Below, in pieces: positions 345-13,823 of a DNA stretch of 13,823 nt. The notes under the pieces are model-generated. The model did not search any database. It was given only the letters and a program-made list of their open reading frames with translations, and had not been told where the DNA came from. Source of the DNA: Candidatus Iainarchaeum sp. (GTDB lineage: Archaea > Iainarchaeota > Iainarchaeia > Iainarchaeales > CSSED10-239); NCBI GenBank assembly GCA_028700905.1, contig JAQVRT010000016.1, positions 1 through 13,823 on the forward strand, given 5' to 3'. The stretch's first letter is position 1; each line of letters begins with the position of its first letter. The position numbers and the translations under genes were made by a program.

Positions 345-1751
345 ATGAAGTCAAAATTTATATTTTTAATATTTTCAATGGTTTTATTATCAGGATTTAT
401 TTTTTCTGCAACTCCTGCAGATCCACCAGTAAGCAATACTGTTTTTAGTGTTGATATCGTGCTTCCAAATCCATATTATGGATTAATTGTTGCAGATGCA
501 TCTAATCTTGCAAATCCAGATTCTGTTTCATCTAACTCAATACAAAATAATGCAGTTGTATTAAGTAAGATTGGGGCAAGTAATCCTGGTGCAAATAAAT
601 TTTTAAAAATTAATTCAACAGGAAACTCTCTTGAATGGGCAACTGTTGAAGGTGGTTCTGGTTCAGGAGATGGTGTAGTTTATACTGCAACAAATCCTAT
701 AAGTATTTCAAATAATGTTATAAGTTTAAGTGATCTAGGTATAACTTCTTCAAAACTTGCTGATAATTCTGTAAATACTTCAAAAATAGCAAATTTTTCA
801 ATTAATGGTATGAAAATTGCTAGTGAAGCTGTTGATGAAGATCAAATAAGAAATGAAGCTGTAACTTCTCAAAAATTAGATACTTATGCAGTAACTTCAA
901 ATAAAATTAATACTGCTGCTGTTACTAAAGAAAAAATTGCAGTTAAATCTGTAGATTATGCAAGACTTGAAGTTTATCCTTTAGATAAATGTCCTGCTGA
1001 AAATGCATCTATTATTTATAGAAATGGAAGACTTGAATGGTCAAATTATATATCATGCGGTTCTAGTGTTTCTGTAGGTGCAATTAATTCTTCTGTGACT
1101 AAAAATTATTTTGCAGCACCATTTAATTCATGTGTTAAAAGTGTAACTCATACAGTAAGTCCTGTAACATGTACAGGTGAAAATTGTATTGAAGAATGGA
1201 GTTTGTTTAGATCAGGTGGAAGTGATTCTGTAACTAATAACTTATCAAATGTAACAAATACTTCTAGAACTGTTACATTTAATGCTTCAGATAATGACTT
1301 ATATAACACAAGTTATGATCTTCAGTATAAATTATCTCAACCTGCAACTGGTTTAACACAAACAGTTTCAAGAAATGGATTTTCAGCAATATCTGGTGAA
1401 GAAACAGCTTGTGCTCCAGTAGTTCCAAGTTCTTTAAATGTTTTAAGATTTCCATCTGATGGATGTATTAATTATTTTGAAGTTAAAGCATTAGTTAGTT
1501 GTGTTGGTTCTTGTAATTATGTAATGTATGTAGATAATCTTCCTCATTCAGAAGGTTCATTTACTGGTACTCAAACAATTACTGAGAATGTATATGTTTC
1601 AGACATAATACATAATAATCCTAAAGTGAAATTTAAGATTACAAATACAGGCCCTGCTGGACTTGTAGGTCTTGAAAGAATTACACCTGAGGGTACACTT
1701 CAAATTACACTTCCACAAATGGTTGATGGACTTCTTTGTTCACAAAATTAA
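345..1751 (+). CDS. Secreted repeat protein: N-terminal signal peptide, Gly/Ser linker, eight tail-fibre-like decapeptide repeats, Cys-rich C-terminal domain
   Basis: 468-aa ORF preceded by an RBS. The N-terminus MKSKFIFLIFSMVLLSGFIFSA is a classic n-h-c signal peptide. A GGSGSGDG linker follows, then the 10-residue repeats at nt 741-980. Two G-x-LEW motifs are present (GNSLEWATVEGG and NGRLEWSNY). By hand count there are 10 Cys, all located after the repeats. The stop codon is followed by a T-tract. Confidence 0.85.
   Translation: MKSKFIFLIFSMVLLSGFIFSATPADPPVSNTVFSVDIVLPNPYYGLIVADASNLANPDSVSSNSIQNNAVVLSKIGASNPGANKFLKINSTGNSLEWATVEGGSGSGDGVVYTATNPISISNNVISLSDLGITSSKLADNSVNTSKIANFSINGMKIASEAVDEDQIRNEAVTSQKLDTYAVTSNKINTAAVTKEKIAVKSVDYARLEVYPLDKCPAENASIIYRNGRLEWSNYISCGSSVSVGAINSSVTKNYFAAPFNSCVKSVTHTVSPVTCTGENCIEEWSLFRSGGSDSVTNNLSNVTNTSRTVTFNASDNDLYNTSYDLQYKLSQPATGLTQTVSRNGFSAISGEETACAPVVPSSLNVLRFPSDGCINYFEVKALVSCVGSCNYVMYVDNLPHSEGSFTGTQTITENVYVSDIIHNNPKVKFKITNTGPAGLVGLERITPEGTLQITLPQMVDGLLCSQN
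741..980 (+). repeat. Eight tandem in-register 30-nt (10-aa) coding repeats, consensus [VI]-x-x-x-K-[IL]-x-x-x-[AS]
   Basis: The units are ITSSKLADNS, VNTSKIANFS, INGMKIASEA, VDEDQIRNEA, VTSQKLDTYA, VTSNKINTAA, VTKEKIAVKS and VDYARLEVYP, with no indels between them. A degenerate extra copy lies upstream (IQNNAVVLSKIGA). Confidence 0.75.
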
Positions 1752-1765
1752 GATTAATTTCTTAA

Positions 1766-1794
1766 TTTCTTTTTCTTTTTTTATTTTGTTTTTT
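1766..1794 (+). terminator. Oligo-T tract, candidate archaeal-type intrinsic terminator of the 345-1751 gene
   Basis: TTTCTTTTTCTTTTTTTATTTTGTTTTTT begins 15 nt after the TAA stop. The same arrangement recurs after the other genes. Confidence 0.4.
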
Positions 1795-1956
1795 AAATTA
1801 AATACCTTTTTAAATAGTTAGGTGTATATTATATCTAAATAATATATTTATCTTTAAGAATAACAAGATATTAAAGATCTAATCTCTTTAATAATAAATC
1901 TTATATCTTTCTTAAAAATATATTACTTTAATGTAGTAAGTTAAAAGCTACATAAC

Positions 1957-1977
1957 TTGGTTTGATTTTCAAACCAA
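1957..1977. promoter_or_regulatory. Perfect 9-bp inverted repeat with 3-bp spacer (TTGGTTTGA ttt TCAAACCAA); candidate operator
   Basis: Verified base by base. It contains the local G/C in an otherwise A/T intergenic region. No T-run follows on either strand, so it is not terminator-like. It lies about 40 bp upstream of the putative TATA box of the regulator gene. Confidence 0.3.
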
Positions 1978-2014
1978 AAAACCTATTTCTTATGAAAAAT
2001 TTAAACCGAAGCTC

Positions 2015-2022
2015 TTTTAATA
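2015..2022 (+). promoter_or_regulatory. TATA-like box (TTTTAATA) that would give a leaderless or near-leaderless transcript of the 2049 gene
   Basis: It lies 27-34 nt upstream of ATG 2049, and no SD sequence is present. In DNA this AT-rich, such strings also occur by chance. Confidence 0.25.
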
Positions 2023-2027
2023 CTTTC

Positions 2028-2064
2028 ATGACATTATCATGATATATTATGACACAAAATGACA
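2028..2064 (+). promoter_or_regulatory. Four helically phased ATGAYA hexamers spanning the start codon of the regulator gene; candidate autoregulatory operator
   Basis: The hexamers are ATGACA (2028), ATGATA (2039), ATGACA (2049, which contains the start codon) and ATGACA (2059). Their spacing is 11, 10 and 10 bp. Confidence 0.3.
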
Positions 2065-2513
2065 ATATCACAAAACAGATATTTTTAGAAAAGTTATTAA
2101 AACAAGATACCAAAGAGCTGGGTTTGAATGATCTTATTCAGATCCAAGAGAAGTTTAACGATCCGTTGATACTTTCTGTAATATTACATCAACTTTTAGA
2201 AGAAAGAAAAAGAACAAACGAGATATTAAAAGACTTGTATGAAAAGTATGACTCTTTACAATTTTCTATTAAGAATAGTAAAGAATCTAGTAATTTAAAT
2301 CAAGATCAAGATACAATTAATATCTTACCAGAAATAGATGATAAAATAATTTCTTTTATAAGAGCAAATCAAAAAGTTGATGCAGAACAAGTACAAGAAG
2401 CATTTAATTATAAAGGATCAAATGCAGCTTCTCAAAGACTTAATAGACTAGTAAAAGAAGGATACTTACGAAAAGTTCAAGCAGGAAGAAAGGTATACTT
2501 TATTGTAAAATGA
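2049..2513 (+). CDS. Transcriptional regulator: N-terminal helical/coiled-coil region plus C-terminal winged helix-turn-helix (MarR/TrmB/ArsR-like fold class)
   Basis: 154-aa ORF. The C-terminal ~60 aa, DDKIISFIRANQKVDAEQVQEAFNYKGSNAASQRLNRLVKEGYLRKVQAGRKVYFIV, show the H1-H2-H3 pattern (recognition helix SQRLNRLVKEG) followed by a beta-hairpin wing (YLRKVQAGRKVYF). The ORF terminates at TGA, inside a hairpin. Confidence 0.8.
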   Translation: MTQNDNITKQIFLEKLLKQDTKELGLNDLIQIQEKFNDPLILSVILHQLLEERKRTNEILKDLYEKYDSLQFSIKNSKESSNLNQDQDTINILPEIDDKIISFIRANQKVDAEQVQEAFNYKGSNAASQRLNRLVKEGYLRKVQAGRKVYFIVK

Positions 2514-2540
2514 TTTTTCCCCTTAAAAATCATTTCCTTT
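2511..2540 (+). terminator. Hairpin overlapping the TGA stop (TGATTTTT-cccctt-AAAAATCA) followed by T-rich TTTCCTTT
   Basis: Perfect 8-bp stem with a 6-nt C-rich loop, verified by hand. The stem is almost entirely A:T, so its stability is low. Confidence 0.35.
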
Positions 2541-2567
2541 AAAAAAACCCCTTTAATATAGAAAAAC

Positions 2568-2596
2568 TGTAAAAAACCCCTTTTTTACATTTTTTT
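2568..2596 (+). terminator. Perfect 9-bp hairpin with CCCC loop (TGTAAAAAA-cccc-TTTTTTACA) followed by T7
   Basis: Verified base by base, and the T7 run at 2590-2596 follows immediately. It has the geometry of an intrinsic terminator, but the stem is all A:T apart from one G:C pair. Confidence 0.4.
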
Positions 2597-2680
2597 CAAA
2601 ATTTATACCTTTTTTCCTTCTTTTAAAAATAAGTTTTTGTCTTTTATTTTAGTCATTTAATTCCCCTCTAAAAAACTTTA

Positions 2681-2736
2681 AAAAAGATTGTAAGGAAAAC
2701 TTTTTTGTTTCTTTCCTTCTTCTTTTCTGCCCTTTA
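2681..2736. repeat. Copy 1 of a 56-bp intergenic direct repeat
   Basis: The sequence is AAAAAGATTGTAAGGAAAACtTTTTTGTTTCTTTCCTTCTTCTTTTCTGCCCTTTA. It matches copy 2 at 55 of 56 positions at an offset of 78 bp. It contains an internal inverted repeat, AAGGAAA ... TTTCCTT. Confidence 0.9.
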
Positions 2737-2758
2737 ATTATAAAAATACTTATTAAAA

Positions 2759-2814
2759 AAAAAGATTGTAAGGAAAACATTTTTGTTTCTTTCCTTCTTC
2801 TTTTCTGCCCTTTA
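2759..2814. repeat. Copy 2 of the 56-bp intergenic direct repeat
   Basis: Identical to copy 1 except for A at 2779 versus T at 2701. Confidence 0.9.
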
Positions 2815-2852
2815 TTTTTAACTTAAAAAACTATTTTTTAATTTTACAACTC

Positions 2853-2875
2853 TTTTTAAATATTTTGTATATATA
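2853..2875 (+). promoter_or_regulatory. TATA-like boxes (TTTTTAAATA, TATATATA) upstream of the 2969 gene
   Basis: They lie about 95-115 nt upstream of ATG 2969, implying a leader of roughly 70 nt. That leader contains a 7-bp inverted repeat (ATTGCTT ... AAGCAAT, about 2893-2920) and the RBS. Confidence 0.25.
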
Positions 2876-2948
2876 GATTTAATACTAATGAAATTGCTTT
2901 TTAACCTATTAAGCAATAAATTTAGATATAATTATTTTAAATTAAAAA

Positions 2949-2955
2949 GAAGGAG
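2949..2955 (+). promoter_or_regulatory. Shine-Dalgarno-like site GAAGGAG for the 2969 gene
   Basis: A GGAG core lies 13 nt upstream of ATG 2969, which is somewhat long spacing. Confidence 0.45.
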
Positions 2956-2968
2956 TTGACTTAAAAAT

Positions 2969-3304
2969 ATGAAACTAGAAAAAATTGGTGCATTTGCTTT
3001 TCTTGGTGGTATCTTAATTTCTATTATTTTTGGACTTATTTACAATATTAACCATCCAGTATGGCTTTCAACTGTTTTAATTATTTTAGGATTAGTTGTT
3101 GGTCTTTTAAACATTGAAGATAAAAATATATCTCTTTTCTTAATTGCATCCATTACATTTATTGCAACCAGTAACTCAATAAATGCAATACCTGTTATAG
3201 GAGATGTTTTAAGAGGAGTTTTAGTTAATTTAGTATACTTTGTAGCTCCAGCTGCATTAGTAGTTTCAATTGTTGCAATTATTAGAGTTTCAAACTCTAA
3301 ATAA
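2969..3304 (+). CDS. Small integral membrane protein, about four transmembrane helices, unknown function
   Basis: 111-aa ORF preceded by an RBS. Its hydrophobic stretches are IGAFAFLGGILISIIFGLIY, VWLSTVLIILGLVVGLL, ISLFLIASITFIA and VLVNLVYFVAPAALVVSIVAII, separated by short polar loops (NINHP, NIEDKN). Two T9 runs follow the stop codon. Confidence 0.85.
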   Translation: MKLEKIGAFAFLGGILISIIFGLIYNINHPVWLSTVLIILGLVVGLLNIEDKNISLFLIASITFIATSNSINAIPVIGDVLRGVLVNLVYFVAPAALVVSIVAIIRVSNSK

Positions 3305-3326
3305 TTCTTTTTTTTTCTTTTTTTTT
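3305..3326 (+). terminator. Oligo-T terminator candidate (T9-C-T9) directly after the TAA stop
   Basis: TTCTTTTTTTTTCTTTTTTTTT starts at the first base after the stop codon. Confidence 0.45.
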
Positions 3327-3445
3327 AAATAAAAATACATTTTTTATCTATAAATAATGAATATTTAAATATTTCTATTTATAGTATATTTACAGTATAT
3401 ATAAAAAACTTTATATAGTAATAAATATATAATATTAATATAATA

Positions 3446-3461: not shown

Positions 3462-3473
3462 TAAAGAAATAAT

Positions 3474-6400
3474 ATGGTTAAAGATAAAAATAATTTAGGC
3501 TCTAATGAAAACAATGAAAATAAACAAAATATTTTTTCAAGGTTTTATAACTATCTTGAAGATAAATATTCTTCTTTATCAAACTGGCTTACAGAAAAAG
3601 GAATACCATTAAATAATTTAAACAATTATTTAGAGGAAAAAGGACTTCCTGCTTTTGCAATAGTTGCATCTATTTTATTATTATTAATTTTTATAATTGT
3701 TTTCTTAATTATCTTTTCTTTTTCCAGTCAATCAACAATAACTTTTTCTGTAAAAGATTATTCTGGACTTTCAATAAATGATGCTTTTTTAAAAATTACA
3801 AATAGTTCTGGTAAGGAAATCTTTTCAGGAACTGTAAATGATAATGATGTTAAAAAAATAAAACTTAAATTAGGAGAATCTTATTCTTTTAAATCAACTA
3901 AAGATGGATATCCTGAATTTTCAAAATCAATAATTATTTCTGATAAAGATCAAAAAGTACAAATTACTTTTTTAGAATTAATTGAGTATGGTGTCTTAAA
4001 AATAAGATTAATAGATAGAGATAATAAAGGAATAATTACTTCAGGAACTGCAATCGCAAGATACACAATTAATAATGCTCCTGAGTCTACAGAAAACATT
4101 GTAAATATTGCAAATGATCATTTCATAACTTTAGAAGTTCCAATGAATAAAGATATTGAACTTTTAGTTAGTGCAGATGATTATGAAGATTTTAAAGAAA
4201 CAAATTTTAGAATAACTTTAGAAAATCAAGAAAAAGTTATTGAAATGGATATTTCTTCTTTATCTTTTGAAGGTAAAAGTCAAGTTACTTTTGTTGTTTT
4301 AGATACAGAAGAAAATCCAATTGATGATGCTTTAGTAAGTATATATAATCTTGGAGATGAATTACTAGATTCAAAAAATACAATTGATGGAAGAGCTTTA
4401 TCTTTTATTGATAGTGGTTCTACAATATCTTATAAAGTTGAAAAAGAAGGTTATAGAACATTTATAAGTGATCCTGAAGTTTCTTTTAGAATTACAAAAT
4501 CTGAAATAACTTATAATGTTACTTTAGAAGAAGGTGGAAACTTTTTAGATGTGTTTGTAAAATCTGGTTCTAATTTTTTATCTCTTGGAGATGTTGCAAT
4601 TACTGTTTATGATTTAAATAATAATATTATTAATTCTGGAAATACAGATGATTTAGGTAATTTAAAATTAACTGGTCTTTCTGATAAAGCTCCAATTGTT
4701 GTTACTGCTTGTAAAGAAGATTTCCTTTGTGAAAATTTAACAGTAGATCTTTTAGAAAAAAGTTCAGTTGAGTTTACTTTAGAAAGAATAGATGTTACAA
4801 ATAGTGCTATTCTGTCTGTTTTTGTTGTTGATGAAAAAAATTTACCAATCTCAAAAGCTTTTATAAAAATCTATCAATTATTACAAGATGAAAAAGAAGT
4901 TCCATACAACACATCTCTTCAAACTGATCTTACAGGTTCTCTTTCAGTACCTTTAAGAGTAGGAGATTCTTTTAGAGTATATTCATTAGTTGGAGAAGTT
5001 CAATATTTTGAAGATGTTACAATTGATGCTTTAAGAGAAAATAAAATAATTTTTGTAATGGATAATGCTTCTAAAATAATAAAATTAGATCTTTATGATG
5101 AAAATGGTTTTAAACTTACTTCAGGATCTTTACTTGTAAAAACAAAAGATGGAACTGTTCTTTTTGATGGTAATTTATCTGAAACAGATCAAGTAAGTTT
5201 TATTTCAGAAGGCTATAAAGATTTATATGCTGAATACACAGATGTTAATGGTAATAAATCTTCAATTAATTTTAATGCTGATGAATCTGAGTCAGATGGA
5301 TATATAAGACTTGATTTTAATAAAGAAGTTAATTTAACAGATTATCCTGTAATTGAGTTTTCAGGAATTGTAGATTCTAAAGGAGTCAAATCAAATTTTG
5401 TAACAATAGGTAAAGAATATTATTTAATTTTTGATGTTTTATTCCCAGAAAATACTTATAAAGGACAAGTACATATTAGAGCTGGTGATGATACTCAAGT
5501 TGATGTTGAAGAAATGAGTTATGGTATAACTGGTTTTTCTGCAATGGATATTTATGATTTTAAATATGGTACAACATATAATAGTTCTCCTCTTCCAGGT
5601 TTAATGAATATTGATCTTTTAAATGAAGGTTCTTCTCAAGTTTTAAATAAATGGCTTGAACTTAAATGGGATAGTGATGTTCCTTTAGGTAATAAACAAA
5701 TCAAAGTAAAAATAAATGTTACAGATGATTCTTATTCAAAATTAACTTTTAAATATAGAACTTTATTTGAAGAAAATAAATTATACTATAGAGATCCAGT
5801 TGACTCTTTATTAAACCAAAGTTATTCTTCACCTCAAAAAGGTGCTTTGTATGCTGACACAAAAGAAGTAAATATTGATGTTTATAATGTTCCTTTAGAT
5901 TGTGAAGGTTCTCAATGTGTTTCATATACTTTTATTGATTCAAAAGGAAATGAATTTTCAAAAGATGATTTCTATGCTGTAAGAGATGAAACTTATTTTT
6001 TAAAAGTAAGTCTTTATTCTTTAGATAATAAACAATTAGATCTTTTAGCAGAAACTTCAAAAAGTTTCCCTTTAATTTCATTTGGTTCTTTTTCAGATAA
6101 TCTTTATCAAAATGAAATAATAAATGATAATTCTTTGTTTGAAATTTCAAGAGATGGTTTTTTACTTTCTGAAAACTCTTTAAAAAATATTTATCTTTCA
6201 TTTATCTCAAAAGATATTGGTGCTGCATATATTGACCTTAAAGCAACAGATGTTATTTTAGGAAATGAAATTTTAAACAATAGATTAAGTTTTAATGTTT
6301 ATGATAAAAAAGAAATGAATGTTTTAGTTTCTCCAAGTAATTATGTTGATTATGGATCAAATTTTACTGTTGATGTTTTAGATTCAGTTTCTCTTGAACC

Positions 6401-9400
6401 TATAACAGATGCTTTTATTTCTTTTTATGATGTTAGAGATACTTTTATTTCTTCTTTAAAACCAAGTAATTCAAATGGAAGGAATGGAAAATATACTATT
6501 ACAAATAATTTTAATACTTCAATTGTTAAAATGGTAGTTGAAAGATATGGTTATCTTCCTTATGAAACTGAAATCTATATAATTGATAATACTTTATTAA
6601 ATGCAATTCCTTCAGAAATAATTTTTAATTTAGGTCTTGATCAAACAGCATCAACTTCAAACTTTAGTTTAGAAAACTTAGGTAATTATCAAGCAACAAA
6701 TGTAAGGTTTGGAGAACCAATTTGGATTGAAGGTAGTGCTGGTATTTATCTTGAAGGAAGAGGTAATCCAATAATTAATAAAAACTCAACTCAAAATTAT
6801 CAACTTTTATTAACAACAGACAATGATCTTGAACTTACAACTGCATATGCACATCTTCCAATATATGCAAATATTGGTCCTAGAGAGGTTACAAAAATAT
6901 TAAATGTTAGAATAAATAAAGGTTTAATGTTAAATGAATGTGTTGAAATTACTCCTTCAGAAGTTTCTTCTTTTGTTGGACTAAATGTTTCTTCAAATTA
7001 TGCAGATCCATTTAATACTCCTTTTACAGATTATGATTATACTTCAAATACTTCAAATAATCCTATGCTTGCTCCTTCTCAAAGTTATTCTAATTATGAA
7101 GAATATCTAAATTCAAGTGGATATAACATTACTGATTCAACAGATAATAGTTATACTTACACAGATTCTTCCAATTATACTTATCATGCAACTTCTCCTG
7201 CTCTTAATTCTCAAATTACTGAAAACACAACTTATTTTACAATTAAAAATAATTGTTCTCAAGCTATAACTTTTAATCCTCAAGCAGTTTTAACTTCTTC
7301 ATCATCAAATAATAATTTAGAAGTTTCTCTTGCAAATGTAACTATTCTTCCAGGAGAAGAAAAAGTTTATGATGTTATTTTAAAAAATTCATCTGAACTT
7401 AAAAGAAAAACAACATATACTTATAATATTTTATGGCATAATAATTATTATTCAATAGCTCCTTCAGTTTTAAATGTTGATCTTTTAGATTTAAGTAGAG
7501 CTTTATGGGTTATGCCACAACAAATAAATGTTCCAATCTCTCAAGTACATCCTCAACAAGCTGCTGAAAATTATACTAGATTTTTTATTAAAAATATAGG
7601 TGCTGTTCCAATAACTGATATACAAATAAGTCAGTATCCAAAAATGGTGTCTTCTAATATTAAAATTACTGAATATCCAAGACAAGTATCTGTTTTAGAA
7701 CCAGGAAAAACAATTCCTGTTGATTTAAAATTTTCTGTAAATATTAATAAATCTACATTAGATAATGCTTTAATACAAGTAACTGGTAAAGCTGTTGGTA
7801 TTAGTGAACCAATAATTTCAACAACACAATTAGTGTTTTCAATTTCTTCTCCAAATTGTTTAAAAGTAAGTAATAAAAATATTAATTTTGATTTAGAAGT
7901 TGGGGAAACAAGAGCAAGAAATATTACAATTACAAATCAATGTTCTGAACCTGTTACAATAGTTGGTATTGATAAAAAACAACAAGGATATTATCAAGCA
8001 TATGGGGATAATTCTTTTAGAATAATTCCAGCTTCTGGTAATCCAATAATTCCTGTTAACATGTCAAATACTTATAGAATAGAGTTTACTGCAAATTCTT
8101 TAGGTGGTTCTCCAAAAACACCAATGATACTTCAAGGTAGATTAATGAATTCAGGTAATCCTGTAACTTCAGAAGAGGTTTTAGTTTCAATAACTATAGA
8201 TGATATAATGGTTGGAGAAGAAGCTGAAAGAAATATTTCTATTTTATCTTCTCTTCCTTCTTGTGAAGATCCACAAAATATTAATTCATATAATAGACCA
8301 TTAATTTCAATTAAAGATTGTTCTGAAACTTCAGGATATTGTGATGGAGAATCTTCAGCTGAATTAATTTTAAAGAAAGTAAATGAACTTCAAAATGAAA
8401 TTAAACAATTTTCTGCACAAACACAATCAAAAGTAATTGATACTGGTTGTACTCTTCAAGATGCATATAGTGGTTTTTGTAAGATATCTGAACTTGGTGG
8501 AGGAATTGATCCTGTTGAGTTTTCTTTCTTTATGCAAAATGATAATGTTACACCTGATTTAATTAAAGAAATTTTAAAAAAATCAAATTATTCTTTTAAA
8601 AATTATTTTGTTGAAACAAATATTTTTAATAAAGAAATTAAAACTATAGATCAATATTCTTCTTATGGGGTATATGCTGGTGGAAATAAATTATTTGTCT
8701 CTCCTCACCTATCAGGTTGTGGAAAATACACAGTAGAGATTGATGGTTATGTTGCTGCAAGTCCAGATTATATTTATCCTGAAAGAGCATATTATTATAT
8801 TAATGTTGTAGAAAAAGATACTAACACAATTCACTGTGAGAAAAATATTGTAAATTATTTAAATTATCTTCCATGGGATCTTTCTTTTAATAAAAACCAA
8901 AGAGCAGGAACTTGGCTTACTTTATTTACTGGTGATGAAAATTTATCAAAAGCTTTAATTAAAAGTGTGGGTAAGTTTAAGTCAGATGAAATTGATTTAA
9001 GATATGTTTATAATAAAGATGTTTTATCTACAAGAAATAGTACATTAAATGTTTCAACTGGAGAGATTTCTGAAAATAAAGAAGCTCTTGCAAAGATTTC
9101 TTTTAATGATACTTCTTTAAGAAAAAGCTCTTCTCCTGAGCAAATAGATATTACTTTAAATTCTCTTTATAATTCTCCTGAGGGTAAAACTTCTGAGTAT
9201 GCTATTAAAGATTTTTCAAAAGTAATTTCTTCAATGATTTCAGATAATGATTATTCTGCAAAAGTTTGTATTTCTGAAGATAAAACATATATGCTTGTTT
9301 TAGATGTTATTTCAGCAGGAGATTTAACTTTTGTTGATAAAGAAATAAGTCTTCCTTTAAAGGATGGACCTTCATGTTCTTTATTAAAAGTTAAGTCAGC

Positions 9401-11453
9401 AGTTCCTGAAACTTTAAAGATTACTTCTGATTCTTTAGAGTTTGCAAATATTGGTTTTAAGAAAACTAAAAATGATACTCTTCAAGAAACACTAGATGTT
9501 AGTGTTATTGCAAATAAAGATTCTAACTTTTATATGTGTGTAACTCCAAATTCAGATATTGCAATCTCAGCTCTTGTTGATAAAAAAATAACTGTAACAG
9601 CAACAAGTATTTATTCTGCAAGTGGTAGTGTTGGAAATAGAAGCACAACTGCAGAAGTAGCTTTCTCTTCATGTGCAATCACACCTGAAGATTATCTTTT
9701 AGGTATTTATTCAAATATTTTAACTGAAAATAATAAAGTTGAAGATGATAGAGTATTACCTCAAAATTATACAGCTATTGTAGATTGGGATAAACAATAT
9801 AATCCTGAAGAAAAAGAAAAATTATGTTCTACTTTACAAAAGATTGTAAATAGTAAAAAGTATAATGGAGAACTTTTCTTTGATTATGAAGTTTTAGGTT
9901 GTGAGCTTGAAGATTCTTCACAAGAAAGAGATTCAAGGTTAAATAAAGCACTTACAAATGCTGGTGCATATTTCTTAAGATGTTCTGTTGTTTGTGCTGG
10001 ATGTTATGGGCTTACAGCACTTGTAATGCCTATATCTCTTGGAGGTATTGGTATTGATTGTTTAGGTTTTTCATGTGGTATTTCTTCTATCCTAGTATTT
10101 GCATCTACATATACTGGTGAAGATAAAGGTATTAATTGGATTTTAGATCAATTGTTAGCAAAATTATTAGGAAATGATGAATTTAAATTCTTTGAACCTT
10201 TATTTGGAGAAGTTAAAGATTGGATTTCAGGTGTTGCTGGTTCTTTTATGGCAGGATTTTCTAAAACTGGATCTTCTGCAGCTGCAACTCCGTTAACTTT
10301 TAAAGAACAATTAATAGATTTAGGCGTTGATGTAACTACAACTCCACAAGCACCTCCAGCAAATACTTTAACTGGTTTAGAAGGTAATGAATTAAAGAAT
10401 TTTAATAGTCAAGTTAAAAACTTTAGTAAATATTTTAGTGGTGCAGATAAAACTAGGTTTATACCTACAGGTAATAATGATAAATCTGTTTTTCTAAAAT
10501 TAATTACTAAATCTTCAACATCTAATGGAGGAATATTTACTTTTGATCCTTCAAAATTATCTCCAACTGAGCTTGATGAACTTTCTGGTATTGTAAAAAG
10601 AGGAACTCTCACAGGAAAATATGCTCATATGGTTGACAAAGATATATTTGTTAAAAGACTTACTAAATATAAAGTAAATTTATCTTCTGGTACTTCTTCT
10701 GGACTTACAAATCCAGGTGGCGTATCTGGTTTTACAACTTTAGAACCAGATGTTCGTGATAATTTATTAAAAGTTATTGATGGTTCTAGTGATTCAAAAG
10801 GACTTATTAAAGAAGCAGATGATTCTATTAAAGTTTTAGAAAAAAAAATAGCTGATCTTAAAAAGAATAATGATAGATCTTTATTTAATCCTAAAAAAGT
10901 AAAAGCTGATCCAAATAAAATAACTGCTCTTGATAGGGCTGCAAGAAAAGCATCTTCAGATATTGCAAGTTTAGAAAAAGAACTTGAAAAAGTTAAAGTA
11001 CAAAAAGCATCTTTACAAAATATAAGTAATAAAATTAAAAATGTTGTTCCAGATAAATCTGGGAATTATTTAGTTCCAGATGAAGTTTTAGATGATTTAT
11101 CTAAAACAAATGGTTCAAAAATGACTGTTGCAAAAAGTAAAGCAAAGTGGGTTAGAGGTGTTGGTGGTTTTGTAAGAGGTTTTGGTTGTGGTCTTTTAGG
11201 TAATATGGTTGGAATTAATGCTTTAAAAGAAGAAGGTAAAACAGGACTTAATAAATCAATAGAGTTTTTAAGTAAAAATGATTTTGAGAAAAATATATTC
11301 TATGTCTCTGAAGTTGATATGTTATCTCCAGAAAATGATCAAGAGTATGAAACAAGATATACAATTAATATAAAACCTTATATCTCTCAAGATCAAAGTA
11401 TTATTTCTTCAATTCCTACAAAAAGAATTGATTCTTGTACTATAGAAGAATAA
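3474..11453 (+). CDS. Giant (2,659 aa) membrane-anchored multidomain cell-surface protein; putative adhesin or host-interaction protein
   Basis: Uninterrupted 7,980-nt ORF. It has an N-terminal cytoplasmic motif plus a TM anchor, tandem beta-sandwich repeats, Ig-like modules, an S/T/N/Y-rich linker, C-terminal Gly/Cys-rich hydrophobic segments and a heptad-repeat region. A T-tract follows the stop codon. The only other ORFs in this interval are short, low-complexity, antisense ones. Confidence 0.95.
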   Translation: MVKDKNNLGSNENNENKQNIFSRFYNYLEDKYSSLSNWLTEKGIPLNNLNNYLEEKGLPAFAIVASILLLLIFIIVFLIIFSFSSQSTITFSVKDYSGLSINDAFLKITNSSGKEIFSGTVNDNDVKKIKLKLGESYSFKSTKDGYPEFSKSIIISDKDQKVQITFLELIEYGVLKIRLIDRDNKGIITSGTAIARYTINNAPESTENIVNIANDHFITLEVPMNKDIELLVSADDYEDFKETNFRITLENQEKVIEMDISSLSFEGKSQVTFVVLDTEENPIDDALVSIYNLGDELLDSKNTIDGRALSFIDSGSTISYKVEKEGYRTFISDPEVSFRITKSEITYNVTLEEGGNFLDVFVKSGSNFLSLGDVAITVYDLNNNIINSGNTDDLGNLKLTGLSDKAPIVVTACKEDFLCENLTVDLLEKSSVEFTLERIDVTNSAILSVFVVDEKNLPISKAFIKIYQLLQDEKEVPYNTSLQTDLTGSLSVPLRVGDSFRVYSLVGEVQYFEDVTIDALRENKIIFVMDNASKIIKLDLYDENGFKLTSGSLLVKTKDGTVLFDGNLSETDQVSFISEGYKDLYAEYTDVNGNKSSINFNADESESDGYIRLDFNKEVNLTDYPVIEFSGIVDSKGVKSNFVTIGKEYYLIFDVLFPENTYKGQVHIRAGDDTQVDVEEMSYGITGFSAMDIYDFKYGTTYNSSPLPGLMNIDLLNEGSSQVLNKWLELKWDSDVPLGNKQIKVKINVTDDSYSKLTFKYRTLFEENKLYYRDPVDSLLNQSYSSPQKGALYADTKEVNIDVYNVPLDCEGSQCVSYTFIDSKGNEFSKDDFYAVRDETYFLKVSLYSLDNKQLDLLAETSKSFPLISFGSFSDNLYQNEIINDNSLFEISRDGFLLSENSLKNIYLSFISKDIGAAYIDLKATDVILGNEILNNRLSFNVYDKKEMNVLVSPSNYVDYGSNFTVDVLDSVSLEPITDAFISFYDVRDTFISSLKPSNSNGRNGKYTITNNFNTSIVKMVVERYGYLPYETEIYIIDNTLLNAIPSEIIFNLGLDQTASTSNFSLENLGNYQATNVRFGEPIWIEGSAGIYLEGRGNPIINKNSTQNYQLLLTTDNDLELTTAYAHLPIYANIGPREVTKILNVRINKGLMLNECVEITPSEVSSFVGLNVSSNYADPFNTPFTDYDYTSNTSNNPMLAPSQSYSNYEEYLNSSGYNITDSTDNSYTYTDSSNYTYHATSPALNSQITENTTYFTIKNNCSQAITFNPQAVLTSSSSNNNLEVSLANVTILPGEEKVYDVILKNSSELKRKTTYTYNILWHNNYYSIAPSVLNVDLLDLSRALWVMPQQINVPISQVHPQQAAENYTRFFIKNIGAVPITDIQISQYPKMVSSNIKITEYPRQVSVLEPGKTIPVDLKFSVNINKSTLDNALIQVTGKAVGISEPIISTTQLVFSISSPNCLKVSNKNINFDLEVGETRARNITITNQCSEPVTIVGIDKKQQGYYQAYGDNSFRIIPASGNPIIPVNMSNTYRIEFTANSLGGSPKTPMILQGRLMNSGNPVTSEEVLVSITIDDIMVGEEAERNISILSSLPSCEDPQNINSYNRPLISIKDCSETSGYCDGESSAELILKKVNELQNEIKQFSAQTQSKVIDTGCTLQDAYSGFCKISELGGGIDPVEFSFFMQNDNVTPDLIKEILKKSNYSFKNYFVETNIFNKEIKTIDQYSSYGVYAGGNKLFVSPHLSGCGKYTVEIDGYVAASPDYIYPERAYYYINVVEKDTNTIHCEKNIVNYLNYLPWDLSFNKNQRAGTWLTLFTGDENLSKALIKSVGKFKSDEIDLRYVYNKDVLSTRNSTLNVSTGEISENKEALAKISFNDTSLRKSSSPEQIDITLNSLYNSPEGKTSEYAIKDFSKVISSMISDNDYSAKVCISEDKTYMLVLDVISAGDLTFVDKEISLPLKDGPSCSLLKVKSAVPETLKITSDSLEFANIGFKKTKNDTLQETLDVSVIANKDSNFYMCVTPNSDIAISALVDKKITVTATSIYSASGSVGNRSTTAEVAFSSCAITPEDYLLGIYSNILTENNKVEDDRVLPQNYTAIVDWDKQYNPEEKEKLCSTLQKIVNSKKYNGELFFDYEVLGCELEDSSQERDSRLNKALTNAGAYFLRCSVVCAGCYGLTALVMPISLGGIGIDCLGFSCGISSILVFASTYTGEDKGINWILDQLLAKLLGNDEFKFFEPLFGEVKDWISGVAGSFMAGFSKTGSSAAATPLTFKEQLIDLGVDVTTTPQAPPANTLTGLEGNELKNFNSQVKNFSKYFSGADKTRFIPTGNNDKSVFLKLITKSSTSNGGIFTFDPSKLSPTELDELSGIVKRGTLTGKYAHMVDKDIFVKRLTKYKVNLSSGTSSGLTNPGGVSGFTTLEPDVRDNLLKVIDGSSDSKGLIKEADDSIKVLEKKIADLKKNNDRSLFNPKKVKADPNKITALDRAARKASSDIASLEKELEKVKVQKASLQNISNKIKNVVPDKSGNYLVPDEVLDDLSKTNGSKMTVAKSKAKWVRGVGGFVRGFGCGLLGNMVGINALKEEGKTGLNKSIEFLSKNDFEKNIFYVSEVDMLSPENDQEYETRYTINIKPYISQDQSIISSIPTKRIDSCTIEE
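3534..3722 (+). other. N-terminal anchor module: FY-x3-E-x-KY, two copies of an EKG[IL]P-type motif, then a single TM helix (aa ~59-83)
   Basis: The sequence is FSRFYNYLEDKYSSLSNWLTEKGIPLNNLNNYLEEKGLPAFAIVASILLLLIFIIVFLIIFSF. The same module opens the CDS at 13373. Confidence 0.75.
3735..5320 (+). repeat. Six tandem, diverged ~80-90-aa beta-sandwich repeats (carboxypeptidase-regulatory-like / PEGA-like pattern)
   Basis: The recurrent pattern is h-x-h-x-V-x-D, then a P-I-x-x-A-x-h-x-h segment, then a [TN]-D-x-x-G segment, then G-[DE]-S/x-[YF] and finally an x-x-x-[GD]-Y segment. Examples are ITFSVKDYSGLSINDAFLKI...STKDGY, SQVTFVVLDTEENPIDDALVSIY...VEKEGY and AILSVFVVDEKNLPISKAFIKIY. The family assignment is by pattern only. 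Confidence 0.6.
6315..6586 (+). other. Seventh, isolated copy of the same beta-sandwich repeat
   Basis: MNVLVSPSNYVDYGSNFTVDVLDSVSLEPITDAFISFYDV...VVERYGYLPYETEIYII follows the same pattern as the repeats at 3735-5320. Confidence 0.5.
6606..8200 (+). other. About four Ig-like modules with an [FY]-x-[IL]-x-N-x-[GC]-x-x-x-[IV] strand motif (CARDB / PapD-like style)
   Basis: The motif instances are NFSLENLGNYQATNVRF, TYFTIKNNCSQAITFNP, TRFFIKNIGAVPITDIQI and ARNITITNQCSEPVTIVGI. Each is followed roughly 40-60 aa later by an L-x-PG-E/K or equivalent strand. This is a pattern-level call only. Confidence 0.4.
6990..7215 (+). repeat. Low-complexity S/T/N/Y/D-rich linker with many N-x-S/T sequons
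   Basis: The sequence is SSNYADPFNTPFTDYDYTSNTSNNPMLAPSQSYSNYEEYLNSSGYNITDSTDNSYTYTDSSNYTYHATSPALNSQ. Confidence 0.7.
9960..10295 (+). other. C-terminal Gly/Cys/Ala-rich hydrophobic segments (two putative TM or re-entrant helices plus an amphipathic Gly-rich segment)
   Basis: AGAYFLRCSVVCAGCYGLTALVMPISLGGIGIDCLGFSCGISSILVFASTY spans aa ~2163-2213. WISGVAGSFMAGFSKTGSSAAATPL starts at aa ~2250. Confidence 0.55.
10810..11045 (+). other. Heptad-repeat (coiled-coil) region
   Basis: In IKVLEKKIADLKK and ITALDRAARKASSDIASLEKELEKVKVQKASLQNISNKIKNV, the a/d positions are mostly I, L, V or A over about six heptads, by hand registration. Confidence 0.55.
11148..11225 (+). other. Glycine-zipper-like hydrophobic segment near the C-terminus
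   Basis: WVRGVGGFVRGFGCGLLGNMVGINAL contains repeated G-x-x-x-G / G-x-G spacing. It is followed by a polar tail of about 75 aa. Confidence 0.5.
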
Positions 11454-11476
11454 TTCTTTTCTTTTTTTATTTTTTT
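11454..11476 (+). terminator. Oligo-T terminator candidate directly after the giant gene stop
   Basis: TTCTTTTCTTTTTTTATTTTTT starts at the first base after the TAA stop. Confidence 0.45.
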
Positions 11477-11511
11477 AGTAAAAAGAAATATATAAAAATA
11501 TAAACATCTTA

Positions 11512-11519
11512 TTTATATT
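11512..11519 (+). promoter_or_regulatory. TATA-like box TTTATATT upstream of the 11563 gene, with a GGTG SD-like tetramer at 11549-11552
   Basis: The box lies 44-51 nt upstream of the ATG, and GGTG lies 10 nt upstream of it. An alternative box, ATATATAAAA, is at about 11488-11497. Confidence 0.25.
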
Positions 11520-11562
11520 AGTTAATATAATATATTAAAGATATAATTGGTGTTATATAATC

Positions 11563-11652
11563 ATGTTAAAAAATAAAAAAGGATTTAATTTATTTACTGC
11601 TTTAATCTCATTGATGCTTTTATCAATAACTCTAGTTTTTATTTTTAATATG
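11563..11652 (+). other. Prepilin-type (class III) signal peptide and N-terminal hydrophobic helix
   Basis: The KK-G-F junction is at aa 5-8, followed by NLFTALISLMLLSITLVFIF. Glu+5 is absent, as in archaeal pilins and bacterial GspK/PilX-like minor pilins. Residue +2 is Asn, which is atypical, so the cleavage call is tentative. Confidence 0.55.
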
Positions 11653-13242
11653 GTTCAAACTGAAGAAAATTATTTAGAATTAATAAATAATCAATCTCAA
11701 GCTTCTGACCTCTTAACAATTGCAGATATTTCAAGAGCTGATGCTTTTAATAATTTTGTTGTTTCTTTTAGAGAACAATGGATGTCTTTTAGAAGTGACT
11801 CTGATTCTGAAATTAGACTTACAAGAAAAGATATTATGCTTGATTGGGATAATTTTGTAGATTATTTTGCAGATTATATTTTCTTTGATAATAATTTTGA
11901 AGATCATTTTGCACGTAATATGGTAGAATCTTTAAATTATACAAATCCACCAACAGGTTATGATATAGATGTTCCTACTTATTCTCCTTATGAATTATCT
12001 AGAATTATTAAAAAAGCTTTTCTTGCAGCTGGAGATGATAAAATAAAAGTTGTAAGTTGTGAAAGAAAAGATGAGGTTTGTTTAGGTACACTTTATTTTA
12101 CAATTGATACTAGAAAACTTTCTGCAGAAGAATATGAAACACTTCCAATGATAACTGTTAAAAGAAATGTTGATGATGAAGTTATTCAAAGACCAGTTTT
12201 TGCAAAAAGAGCATACAGGATATATATACCTTGGAGAGGATTTCAAGCTTTAAGAACTGTTAGAAATTTTGCACTTGATGCTGATCTTGAAAAAAGAGAA
12301 ACAACTTCTGAAATTATTGAAAATTCAAAAGATTCAAGAGGTTTTTTTAATCCTTATATTCATTATACTCTCAATAGTGCAAAACTTGGTGTGTGTGATA
12401 TTGATAGTTGTGCTCTAAGAAAAGATTTATTTAAAACTGTTGAGTTAAATGGGTTTACTGGAGCTACATGTTCTAATCCTCCTGAAGTTAGTAATGTTTC
12501 TGACAATGGAGGAATTTCTGTCCCTTTTGCAGGAAGAGTTTCTCTTTCTAATACTACTCATAGTTACAAAATTCAAGATATAGATGGAACTGTGAAACCA
12601 ATATATAATGATTTAGTTAAGACTACTATAAAGAATAATTTAGAAAATAGAAGTGATACAATACATGCAGGAAAAAAATTGCCATCAATCTATTCTTCTT
12701 CTTCAATTTTAGATGATGAATGTCAAATGCCTTTAACAATAAATGGTTTTTCAATATGTAATATACGTGTAAGACTTCCTTCTCCAAAAGTTACAAAAGA
12801 AGTAACTTCTGTAGGAGCTGTTTCAGAATCTTTAAGTAATTTATTTCCAGTTTCATTTAATCCTTCTGGTTTTAATAAAGCTTCAAACTTAAGTCTCTCT
12901 ATTGATGATTATTATAATATTAATGTTTTTGATCAAGAAAGTATTCCTAATCAAACTAATTATCAATATCTATCATGTACAACTATTGATTATATTGATT
13001 TATTATTTAAATTTGAAGAACAAGATGAAAAATATATCTTTTCTGAAGATTCAAAAAATATTTATATTCAGATATCAGATAGATTTTCAGATTATACTTT
13101 CTTTACTTCATCTGAAAGCGTTCCTACCTTTAATGGAGGATATTTTCAAAAAAAAGATCTTCCTTTATTTACAGGTGGAAATGGTTGGACTTGTAAAAGT
13201 TATGAAGAAAATGAAGATGATGCAGCATGTATAGCAGGCTAA
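11563..13242 (+). CDS. Large pilin-like (class III / prepilin-type signal peptide) exported protein with a Cys-rich globular domain; putative pilus-tip or minor-pilin adhesin
   Basis: 559-aa ORF. Its N-terminus MLKNKKG|FNLFTALISLMLLSITLVFIFNMV has a basic stretch, then Gly, then Phe+1 and a hydrophobic helix of about 22 aa, resembling the G|F-T-L-I-E prepilin motif but with Thr instead of Glu at +5. By hand count there are 10 Cys. No other TM segment is present. Confidence 0.85.
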   Translation: MLKNKKGFNLFTALISLMLLSITLVFIFNMVQTEENYLELINNQSQASDLLTIADISRADAFNNFVVSFREQWMSFRSDSDSEIRLTRKDIMLDWDNFVDYFADYIFFDNNFEDHFARNMVESLNYTNPPTGYDIDVPTYSPYELSRIIKKAFLAAGDDKIKVVSCERKDEVCLGTLYFTIDTRKLSAEEYETLPMITVKRNVDDEVIQRPVFAKRAYRIYIPWRGFQALRTVRNFALDADLEKRETTSEIIENSKDSRGFFNPYIHYTLNSAKLGVCDIDSCALRKDLFKTVELNGFTGATCSNPPEVSNVSDNGGISVPFAGRVSLSNTTHSYKIQDIDGTVKPIYNDLVKTTIKNNLENRSDTIHAGKKLPSIYSSSSILDDECQMPLTINGFSICNIRVRLPSPKVTKEVTSVGAVSESLSNLFPVSFNPSGFNKASNLSLSIDDYYNINVFDQESIPNQTNYQYLSCTTIDYIDLLFKFEEQDEKYIFSEDSKNIYIQISDRFSDYTFFTSSESVPTFNGGYFQKKDLPLFTGGNGWTCKSYEENEDDAACIAG

Positions 13243-13304
13243 ATTCACTTTTTAATGTTAATAAAAAGGTATTTAAATGTATAAGCACTATAATTATATA
13301 ACAA

Positions 13305-13340
13305 ATAACATAGTTTTTAAAAGATTATGTTATAAAAATA
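13305..13340 (+). promoter_or_regulatory. 8-bp inverted repeat (ATAACATA n13 TATGTTAT) abutting a TATA-like box (TATAAAAATA)
   Basis: The arms are at 13305-13312 and 13326-13333, verified by hand. The TATA-like string at 13331-13340 lies 33-42 nt upstream of ATG 13373. An SD-like GAGAGATGA is at 13361-13369. Confidence 0.25.
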
Positions 13341-13372
13341 TAATATATTATAATATATACGAGAGATGATTT

Positions 13373-13823
13373 ATGGGTCTTAGATCTTTTTACTTTAAAC
13401 AAGAAGAAAAATATTTTAATTTTCTAGACAGAATGGAGAAAAAAGGAATTAATCTATACAAAATAGTAGATCCTTTAGAAAAGAATGGTATACCTACTTT
13501 TTTAGTATTTAATATATTTATTCTACTTTTAATTTTATTTTTAGTTTATTTATTTATTGGACAAACTCCATTAACTGATGAAAACTATACTTTAACTTTT
13601 GTAGATTCTCAAGACCAGCCAATCTCAAATCAAGCAATTGAAATTCTTCTTAATAATAATAGAAAGATTTTAAACACTAATGAATTTGGAATTTCAGAAA
13701 TTACAGATGTTGAAATTAAATCTTATGATTTAGAAATAAGTAGTGAAAAGTATACTCTTGAAAATCCATTAACTTTAGATTTTAAAGAAAACACTTCTCA
13801 TAAGATATTTTTAAAATCAAAAA
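13373..13823 (+). CDS. 5' end of a second membrane-anchored surface protein (paralogous N-terminal module, TM anchor and first beta-sandwich repeat); runs off the right edge
   Basis: This ORF is absent from the supplied track because it has no stop codon in the window. Hand translation gives MGLRSFYFKQEEKYFNFLDRMEKKGINLYKIVDPLEKNGIPTFLVFNIFILLLILFLVYLFIGQTPLTDENYTLTFVDSQDQPISNQAIEILLNNNRKILNTNEFGISEI..., with 150 codons open to the edge. It aligns without gaps to aa 21-62 of the giant protein. Confidence 0.8.
   Translation, partial: MGLRSFYFKQEEKYFNFLDRMEKKGINLYKIVDPLEKNGIPTFLVFNIFILLLILFLVYLFIGQTPLTDENYTLTFVDSQDQPISNQAIEILLNNNRKILNTNEFGISEITDVEIKSYDLEISSEKYTLENPLTLDFKENTSHKIFLKSK

Follow-up and report, generated by a model that had tools for sequence, protein, structure and literature searches.

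It is still an open question how DPANN archaea recognize, hold, and tap their hosts; the Iainarchaeota are a group without a known host. Could a block of genes for giant surface proteins be part of the machinery? The stretch of DNA considered here, 13,823 bp of contig JAQVRT010000016.1 from Candidatus Iainarchaeum sp. (hereafter, the window), is one end of a larger island and is cut at both edges; it forms the left third of a block of ~42 kb. The block accounts for ~5% of a 0.84-Mb genome and is retained throughout the lineage, which makes it a prime candidate. We are inclined to regard it as an outward-facing apparatus with which a metabolically minimal, probably host-dependent archaeon makes contact with a partner cell, and the location of its proteins at the cell surface is highly probable. 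An earlier note, made from the window alone, had described seven co-directional genes with no enzyme or transporter among them, and a survey of open reading frames (ORFs; at least 90 amino acids, nested ORFs excluded) together with Pfam and NCBIfam scans bore this out. All non-nested ORFs of that size, seven genes in total, lie on the plus strand, and minus-strand ORFs of 60–89 amino acids fall inside the big genes. Of the seven products, six are either exported or located in the membrane, the exception being a winged helix-turn-helix (wHTH) protein; the surface character claimed in the note therefore stands, with a count of six rather than five.

The island extends at least 23 kb past the window. 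In the complete chromosome of Candidatus Forterrea multitransposorum and in a 698-kb JGI contig, the order is G1 (a giant surface protein, here of 2671 residues), a pilin-like protein of 559 residues, G2 (2323 residues), G3 (1867 residues), and then products of 964, 2466, 120, and at least 718 residues. The 964-, 120-, and at least 718-residue products are exported, the last being cut by the end of the locus (L009 and L015), and each protein in the extended order has an N-terminal transmembrane (TM) segment or a signal peptide. Gaps among the genes for G2, G3, and the 964- and 2466-residue proteins are only 16–38 bp, and those among G1, the 559-residue protein, and G2 are 110–131 bp. The window is 95–98% identical to the Forterrea chromosome, and its nucleotide identity to relatives is 89–99% over aligned stretches (blastn). 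When species-representative genomes were scanned, the sole record hit by G2 was CP045477.1, at 96% over 2,323 residues, which is that same complete chromosome of 839,632 bp.

Homologues of the 559-residue protein fall into 17 clusters with 33–100% identity, and those of G1 numbered 12 in a word-seeded search and 60 representatives in an exhaustive HMMER search; all of them are unannotated. The loci compared were L002–L004, L006, L008–L012, L015, and L017; P0019, P0026, and P0028 are homologous proteins. Given as product lengths in residues, L008 (89% identity in the 559-residue protein) reads 452/154/111/2681/558/2323/at least 1926; L004 (57–60%) reads 153/111/2696/558/2321/at least 1704; and L010 (51–56%) reads 111/2645/554/2307/1862. 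In L011, where G1 is 38% identical, the order is NurA/150 (the wHTH protein, 69%)/175/99/112 (a four-TM protein, 69%, opposite strand)/2638/pilin-like, after which the contig ends. L006 (33% in the 559-residue protein) has LemA/2860/604/2470/at least 1543, and L017 (32%) has LemA/3086/601/2174/1911. The order G1/pilin-like/G2/G3 is thus kept in L004, L008, L009, and L010, and also in L006 and L017 at 32–33% identity; the pilin-like gene lies immediately 3′ of G1 in every lineage examined, and G2 comes next wherever the contig goes on. These four genes are the conserved core. In most lineages, the wHTH and four-TM genes lie close to it, although not rigidly so, and both are far better conserved than the genes for surface proteins. 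Conservation of gene order in relatives, which the earlier note had put forward as a check on its reading, accordingly holds down to ~32% identity.

G1 of the window (2659 residues; positions 3474 to 11453, plus strand) was delineated from its hydropathy, its homologues, and an AlphaFold2 (AF2) model. It opens with a leader (residues ~18–52, nucleotides 3525–3629) and a TM anchor (53–82, 3630–3719) that lies within a hydrophobic segment spanning residues 53–93. A β-sandwich stalk (83–1200, 3720–7073) and a low-complexity linker (1201–1320, 7074–7433) lead to ASH/PapD-like β-sandwiches (1321–1740, 7434–8693) and then to a conserved, Cys-containing module with no fold match (1741–2148, 8694–9917). 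Gly/Cys-rich hydrophobic helices, a possible membrane hairpin, and then amphipathic helices follow (2149–2260, 9918–10253). Next comes a hypervariable cassette that is Cys-free, basic, and partly coiled-coil (2261–2565, 10254–11168), and the protein closes with a Gly-rich hydrophobic helix (2566–2587) and a small conserved β tail domain (together 2566–2659, 11169–11453). AF2 predicts four helices in residues 2149–2260, the first two being the Gly/Cys-rich hydrophobic ones; the segment has five Cys, with conserved motifs CxxxCxxC and DCxxFxCG, and the hydropathy profile has a second, weaker hydrophobic region at 2167–2210. In the 2466-residue protein (L015, 12911–20311), a strongly hydrophobic Gly-rich helix pair, GAIGIGIGTAAIVSLVLIMAKVAVLGSLLGPVGWIVAGLSIVVASIAP, occupies residues 1523–1579 and resembles the weaker region near the G1 C terminus. 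As judged from such hydrophobic segments, some of the giants may cross a membrane more than once.

The N-terminal module of G1 is common to G2 and G3 and has the pattern (F/L)YY-LEDKY...(KGI-LYKI-DPLEKKGIP), followed by a very hydrophobic helix; the leader of the 2466-residue protein is a more diverged version. The paralogous anchor modules that had been noticed at the outset are thus real. G2 and G3 are also paralogous to each other, with 23–25% identity over ~900–1,400 residues. The window holds the first 150 residues of G2 (13373–13823, plus strand; 2323 residues in relatives), which by homology cover the leader, the TM anchor (in a hydrophobic segment at residues 37–69), and the first β-sandwich domain, and which are 97–99% identical to the 2323-residue proteins of L008 and L009. 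A profile search with the shared leader returned eight short fragments and missed the known giants, because hydrophobic words swamp the index, and it is therefore uninformative on how far the leader has spread.

No model in the curated family scans (Pfam, NCBIfam, and PADLOC) exceeded its cut-off for any window product. CarboxypepD_reg, SpaA/prealbumin, Big_1, bMG3, and DUF7507 are above threshold in G2, G3, the 2466-residue protein, and G1 orthologues, and the window G1 itself has CarboxypepD_reg, bMG3, and DUF7507 at sub-threshold level only. The ectodomains are acidic, contain Cys, and match immunoglobulin (Ig)-like folds. Of the 60 representative G1 homologues, 49 exceed 1,200 residues and 11 are shorter fragments; in 46 of the 49, the match runs from about residue 580 to 1,510 of their own length, the exceptions being 965, 458, and 368. 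An AF2 model of G1 residues 1460–2659, built on a 12-sequence alignment, has a mean predicted local distance difference test score (pLDDT) of 64.5 and a predicted template modeling score (pTM) of 0.39. With this model, Foldseek matched only β-sandwiches of the ASH/PapD/MSP-like and macroglobulin-like kinds in the PDB and gave no PDB match for residues ~1741–2148, the helices of 2149–2260, the partly disordered or coiled-coil region, the helix at 2566–2587, or the terminal β domain.

What the distal end of G1 might do is suggested by its relatives. P0026 (3086 residues) aligns with G1 over nearly its full length, in two blocks of 32 and 28% identity, and its context of LemA/G1/pilin-like/G2/G3 makes it the positional orthologue. 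Beyond the homologous tail lies an additional NlpC/P60 domain, which scores 28.4 bits (cut-off, 23) and has a recognizable Cys/His core. P0028 (2895 residues), a more distant homologue whose gene adjoins one for an archaeal-type CDC48, ends in DUF2272 (57.1 bits against 27) and an SLT lytic transglycosylase domain (50.2 against 21.3). In the window G1, peptidoglycan hydrolase domains above the Pfam threshold are absent. A by-eye reading of the C-terminal extension of the L006 G1 as NlpC/P60/CHAP-like was dropped, having no support from Pfam, the PDB, or BLASTP against P0026, and a literature search on peptidoglycan hydrolases in DPANN archaea found nothing relevant. Because murein hydrolase domains are present on homologues while the archaeon, to our knowledge, has no murein of its own, we argue that the C-terminal end of the G1 family faces outward and acts on the wall of another cell; for the window G1, this applies by orthology only. 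The hydrolase-bearing homologues hint at bacterial walls as the targets in related lineages.

These domains also bear on the alternative that the block encodes a general cell envelope or S-layer-type coat, made of S-layer stalks, anchors, or a fibrous coat and needed for the integrity of the envelope with or without a partner. Strain variation would then reflect the ordinary rapid change of surface antigens, or escape from viruses for which the proteins are receptors. Membrane-anchored arrays of Ig-like β-sandwiches are a typical feature of S-layer and anchor proteins in archaea, the S-layer candidates proposed for DPANN archaea have multiple Ig-like folds, the block is vertically inherited between conserved housekeeping flanks, and no adhesin, lectin, or toxin domain was found in the Pfam and NCBIfam scans. 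A distal peptidoglycan hydrolase, however, would be useless on the archaeon's own wall, yet one is found on the positional orthologue and another on the more distant homologue. Rather than one or two abundant lattice formers, there are at least five different giants and a pilin-like protein, and their anchors are N-terminal TM helices that follow a cytoplasmic leader, not signal peptides combined with C-terminal anchors. We consider a coat unlikely, albeit an alternative of real weight.

The second line of evidence comes from a comparison of strains. In blastn alignments with L002, L003, and L008, the window matches at 96–98% up to position 10193, does not align thereafter, and resumes at 11169. 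In terms of the protein, G1 is 97–99% identical to its counterparts in Forterrea-group strains over residues 1–2140, 47–50% over 2141–2260, and 27–30% over 2261–2565, and returns to ~90% (89–90%) over 2566–2659, the last ~70 residues (from about residue 2590) being identical. The cassette of the window is nearer to the alleles of other lineages, namely those of L010 (45%, the closest), P0019 (39%), and L004 (36%), and L008 and L002 are themselves 65% identical in the cassette and 97% elsewhere. Because the cassettes of the window, L002, and L008 all differ, at least three alleles circulate in one species-level group, and the pattern is the signature of allelic replacement by recombination. Recombination has been named as a process that shapes the Forterrea population (PMC5905446). 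A Logan assembly made independently from the source run (SRR22315503) reproduces positions 9908–13495 of the window at 99.9%, confirming the cassette and its downstream junction. Its contig L001 begins at position 9908, i.e. at about residue 2145 of G1, where identity to other strains starts to drop; a break there is what a branching assembly graph would be expected to produce and suggests that more than one cassette allele was present in that sample. The cassette contains 49 Lys and Arg, 35 Asp and Glu, and no Cys, and sequon density and charge gave no clear membrane side for it. It could serve as a marker of strain or partner specificity in time-series metagenomes such as those of Crystal Geyser.

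A switch of this kind bears on the coat alternative in two ways. Virus-receptor surface proteins are classic hotspots of allelic replacement; on the other hand, the variation is confined to a discrete cassette and is not spread over the exposed surface. It also raises contact-dependent antagonism by the logic of polymorphic toxins, in which G1 would deliver a variable C-terminal cassette or hydrolase and a small neighbor would provide immunity. Superficially, the architecture of G1 is like that of CdiA, Rhs, or MafB, in that a long conserved N-terminal part is joined to a sharply variable C-terminal segment that is exchanged between lineages, and homologues have NlpC/P60 or SLT at the C terminus. 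The variable segment is nevertheless internal, being followed by the ~70 residues that are identical between strains; the predictions for it are of disorder, helix, or coiled coil, with no match to a toxin family in Pfam, NCBIfam, or PADLOC; and there are no orphan cassette or immunity arrays. Neither neighbor covaries with the cassette. The gene downstream encodes the 559-residue exported protein, which is not a small immunity protein, and the four-TM protein upstream is the same (100% identity) between strains whose G1 cassettes differ, with 86% identity in L010. The latter was tried as an immunity partner and ruled out on that ground. We judge antagonism to be very unlikely.

The 559-residue protein encoded between G1 and G2 (11563–13242, plus strand), which has an NCBI entry from a Candidatus Iainarchaeum metagenome-assembled genome, begins MLKNKKG, followed directly by FNLFTALISLMLLSITLVFIFNMV, a class-III prepilin-like pattern that is conserved in all 15 full-length homologues. 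KKG is followed by F and by ~25 hydrophobic residues (nucleotides 11563–11661), the hydrophobic segment being placed at residues 7–33 by hydropathy, and eight Cys are invariant among the same 15 proteins. In an AF2 model (pLDDT 76.9, pTM 0.77), a continuous helix at residues 10–77, with pLDDT below 50 for residues 25–44, leads into an α/β globular body. Foldseek searches of the PDB and BFVD with this model gave nothing at E ≤ 1e-3, and the protein matches no Pfam pilin family; the NCBIfam ComGF model gives 18.5 bits against a cut-off of 80 (E = 0.0018). Within the ~57 kb covered around the locus, there is no gene for a prepilin peptidase or for an assembly ATPase or platform protein; a secretion-related ATPase is mentioned elsewhere in the Forterrea genome (PMC5905446). 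Likeness to type IV pilins therefore lies in a basic, Gly-ending N terminus before a hydrophobic stretch, in a long N-terminal helix that in the model runs into a globular domain, and in the weak N-terminal match to ComGF. The protein differs from them in being three to four times the ordinary size, in matching no pilin fold and no family-level hidden Markov model, and in having its gene between those of giant surface proteins with no assembly genes nearby. The label "pilin-like" that the earlier note had applied to the whole protein is justified for its N terminus and not for its globular body.

The 468-residue exported protein (345–1751, plus strand) starts with a signal peptide, hydrophobic at residues 1–25. 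It had been called tail-fiber-like, and its repeat, at residues ~115–261 (nucleotides ~687–1127), is indeed real: it matches PHROG tail-fiber families with E = 3e-10 and 1e-6, and tblastn finds phage tail fibers, host specificity protein J, and WIAG-tail proteins at E ~ 4e-7. A PDB sequence search with the protein gave only E ≥ 0.05. Compared with L002, its ends are 92–100% identical and residues 100–350 (window positions ~645–1395) are 42–74% identical, so that the island has, in the variable center of this protein, a second place where strains differ markedly. With phage tail fiber and host-specificity proteins it has the repeat in common; the viral structural module that accompanies those proteins was not found around the locus.

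That repeat is one reason to consider an integrated virus, a plasmid, or a mobile island with tail-fiber-like and structural proteins; others are weak matches of the wHTH protein to AbiEi, MobC, and phage regulators, and the transposon-rich character of the genome. The setting of the locus argues for something else. Upstream of the island in L002, on the same strand, are genes for DUF2207, pyruvate phosphate dikinase (PPDK), LemA, a metallo-β-lactamase-fold protein, an M48 peptidase, a ribbon-helix-helix protein, and NurA, and the flank PPDK/LemA/metallo-β-lactamase-fold/M48/NurA also precedes the G1 orthologue in an Iainarchaeum metagenome-assembled genome in which G1 is 38% identical. Because the same housekeeping flanks are found in a lineage this distant, the locus is chromosomal and vertically inherited in a 0.84-Mb DPANN genome, that of a Candidatus Forterrea strain of the Iainarchaeota. 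Scans with Pfam, NCBIfam, and PHROG found no integrase, capsid, terminase, replication, or conjugation gene, and there is no tRNA in the window and no match to an Rfam family. A tblastn search of 50,697 phage records gave no match for G1, and IMG/VR yielded no relative of the pilin-like protein. GC content is uniformly ~25–30% (range in the window, 20–30%), with a cumulative GC skew that climbs steadily. A mobile element is thus extremely improbable, and a viral or plasmid origin is effectively refuted by the chromosomal flanks, the absence of viral and plasmid genes in these scans, and the lack of phage or IMG/VR relatives. The outcomes that the earlier note had named as speaking against its proposal are the opposite of what was found: synteny is present, no housekeeping homology was found with Pfam or NCBIfam, and the locus is not a virus or plasmid.

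Taken together, hydrolase domains on homologues and a strain-variable cassette strengthen the reading of the block as a device for host contact. In such a device, the stalks would hold distal modules off the membrane, where these would bind the envelope of the partner or host. The C terminus of G1 would be the business end, outside the cell and touching or inserting into the partner envelope, and in related lineages this end carries peptidoglycan-cleaving domains. The G1 cassette, the center of the 468-residue protein, and those parts of the pilin-like protein that vary would be determinants of specificity or targets of diversifying selection. The pilin-like protein might be processed like a type IV pilin and then cap or join a short filament, or it might stay in the membrane as an anchored partner of G1 and G2. 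The wHTH and four-TM proteins are conserved neighbors that, as far as gene linkage can tell, are only candidates for a role in the system.

Several points weigh against this reading. The window G1 has no hydrolase and no recognizable adhesin, lectin, or toxin domain; the distal module of G1 and the globular domain of the pilin-like protein match nothing, so that function is not readable from homology; and the AF2 model of the C-terminal half of G1 is of moderate quality only. The cassette differs from the acidic ectodomain in being basic and in lacking Cys, and it could be cytoplasmic. Its hypervariability fits escape from viruses that use it as a receptor, or plain variation of the envelope, as well as it fits host specificity.

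A bolder form of the contact proposal, which we hold to be quite unlikely, is that G1-type giants are tethers between two membranes. The N-terminal helix would sit in the membrane of the archaeon, a stalk of ~2,000 residues would cross the gap, and the C-terminal Gly/Cys-rich helices would lie in the partner's envelope; the cassette, placed between hydrophobic segments, would set partner range, and the NlpC/P60 or SLT domains appended in sister lineages would cut the bacterial wall. If this were true, then G1/pilin-like/G2/G3 would be an uncharacterized envelope-breaching and docking machine of the Iainarchaeota, and some DPANN archaea would have bacterial partners.

The orientation of the genes contributes nothing to the argument. 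That all seven lie on one strand, as the earlier note had stressed, is correct; the shared direction carries no weight as evidence for an operon here because housekeeping neighbors have it too. All 14 genes called in the 20-kb locus L002, including those for PPDK, the M48 peptidase, and NurA, lie on the same strand, and the genes downstream in L009 and L015 are likewise co-directional, making at least 20 consecutive genes around the locus (L002, 1–20465; L009; L015). Replication-linked GC skew and a bacterial-type replication strand bias have been reported for the Forterrea genome (PMC5905446), and the co-directionality seen here fits that bias and is not specific to the island. T-tracts right after the genes for the 468-residue protein, the four-TM protein, and G1 (1760–1811, 3305–3343, and 11455–11480), with AT-rich, TATA-like stretches before the next start codons, suggest that several of the island genes may be separate transcription units and not one operon.

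The remaining features of the window lie to the left of G1. At its edge (1–327, plus strand) are the C-terminal 108 residues of a 139-residue exported protein, 96% identical to the product of L002:7903–8322, which in its full length has the N-terminal signal peptide KKLSFIFILFAFLVFSAINVSA; the fragment matches no family in Pfam or NCBIfam. The 154-residue cytoplasmic protein (2049–2513, plus strand) has a probable C-terminal wHTH at residues ~93–152 (nucleotides 2325–2504), where matches are sub-threshold but concordant: Penicillinase_R (16.5 bits against 22.6), MarR_2, HTH_27, LexA, and, in NCBIfam, ArsR. Further matches of this kind are to a PHROG transcriptional regulator (4.6e-6) and, again sub-threshold, to the PH0140 HTH regulator in the PDB (E = 0.05) and to the wHTH of AbiEi and Csa3; PDB sequence searches with the protein and with the wHTH profile gave only E ≥ 0.05. 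The N-terminal 90 residues match nothing at all.

The wHTH protein is 69–80% identical in lineages in which G1 is 38–60% identical, and in L011 the two values are 69 and 38%. In the assembly collection, 118 blocks contain the identical sequence, often with contigs of 0.2–1 Mb (including one of 663,598 bp from JGI and one of 426 kb from ENA). Constraint on this protein is thus unusually strong for a presumed local regulator. Its gene is adjacent to the island in Forterrea strains and in L004. In L011 (8439–9632, and the same in L012), a 175-residue gene and a 99-residue PEP-utilizers fragment stand between it and G1, with the four-TM gene inverted, and it is absent from the 1.4–3.4 kb upstream of G1 in L006 and L017. 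The case for the wHTH protein as the island's "own regulator" is weak because the gene, although linked, is far more conserved than the island, its match is sub-threshold, and it is separated or absent in some lineages. The four-TM protein (2969–3304, plus strand) is a 111-residue integral membrane protein with three to four helices in its hydropathy profile and no family match in Pfam, NCBIfam, PHROG, or PADLOC.

The spacer between the wHTH and four-TM genes contains an element of ~64 nucleotides in two tandem copies (2680–2821, plus strand), at 2680–2743 and 2758–2821, which form a direct repeat of 95% identity with a spacing of ~78 nucleotides. Its core is a 17-nucleotide polypyrimidine tract, CCTTCTTCTTTTCTGCC, at 2715–2731 and 2793–2809. 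In addition to the two copies of the window, the element is found in three copies in L002 (10630–10868) and also in L004 (872–949), L010 (142–251), and L011 (8240–8256). The core is exact, in one to three copies, in every lineage with a complete spacer sequence, and these include lineages with no more than ~72% identity in coding DNA; it is the one new hint that bears on the regulator idea. Its place is between the wHTH and four-TM genes, or 5′ of the four-TM gene in L010, whose contig starts there, or right after the wHTH gene in L011 and L012. RNAalifold gave no consensus structure, and Rfam no match, for the element. It might bind a protein, belong to a terminator, or be a small RNA without structure.

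How, then, does the block compare with what has been described? The earlier note had recognized no described system of this kind, but one is in print. Probst & Banfield (2018) reported a 42-kb region of Candidatus Forterrea multitransposorum with five membrane-anchored proteins of >1,800 residues, which they proposed to act in cell-cell interaction (PMC5905446); the same genome lacks most biosynthesis, from which a host-dependent lifestyle was inferred, and is rich in transposons. That region is the same locus in a conspecific or nearly conspecific strain, with the same gene order, G2 at 96% identity, and G1 at 97% over residues 1–2140, and L009 and L015 contain the corresponding G1 (2671), G2 (2323), G3 (1867), 2466-residue, and at least 718-residue proteins, each with an N-terminal TM segment. 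The strain of the window differs in its G1 cassette allele (27% identity). Both the locus and its proposed role have thus already been published for a near-identical genome. The account given there consists of one sentence and a cartoon, without the pilin-like partner, the leader, the gene order across lineages, the cassette, or the hydrolase-bearing homologues.

More broadly, the presumption that giant surface proteins serve in host contact is well established for both DPANN archaea and the candidate phyla radiation (CPR). The SPEARE proteins of Nanohaloarchaeota, of 3,300–8,500 residues and ~4% of the genome, were proposed to make contact with the host and to form pores (Hamm et al. 2019; PMC6642349). 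Like the giants described here, they are mostly extracytoplasmic and membrane-anchored, have variable ectodomains of the adhesion type, and belong to a host-dependent DPANN archaeon. Their serine protease, laminin-G, BC-toxin, and restriction endonuclease domains, however, were not detected by Pfam or NCBIfam in G1, G2, G3, or the 2466-residue protein; most of them are anchored near the C terminus and keep a conserved nuclease portion in the cytoplasm; the sequences showed no relationship; and they differ from the multigene cluster with a pilin-like protein seen here. In the CPR predator Vampirococcus lugosii, the largest proteins (1,392–4,163 residues) are membrane-localized, have Ig/DUF11-type domains, and are proposed to recognize and hold the host alongside type IV pili (PMC8080830). 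The parallel is that of an ultrasmall, host-dependent cell with giant membrane proteins, as proposed here; Vampirococcus is, however, a bacterium, the sequences are unrelated, and no conserved core order, shared leader, or cassette is described for it.

With CdiA and Rhs proteins, G1 has in common a very long conserved N-terminal part and a delimited variable segment toward the C terminus that is exchanged by recombination, and its homologues likewise end in hydrolase domains. It departs from them in the internal position of that segment, with a conserved tail after it, no recognizable toxin, and no covarying immunity gene, and in having no FHA/TPS, Rhs/YD, or PT-motif and an N-terminal TM anchor in place of secretion. 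Set against all of these systems, what is new here is a partner to the giants that is pilin-like, key modules with no known fold, a leader shared between the giants, a cassette that is swapped between strains, homologues that bear hydrolases, and a core of genes whose order is conserved.

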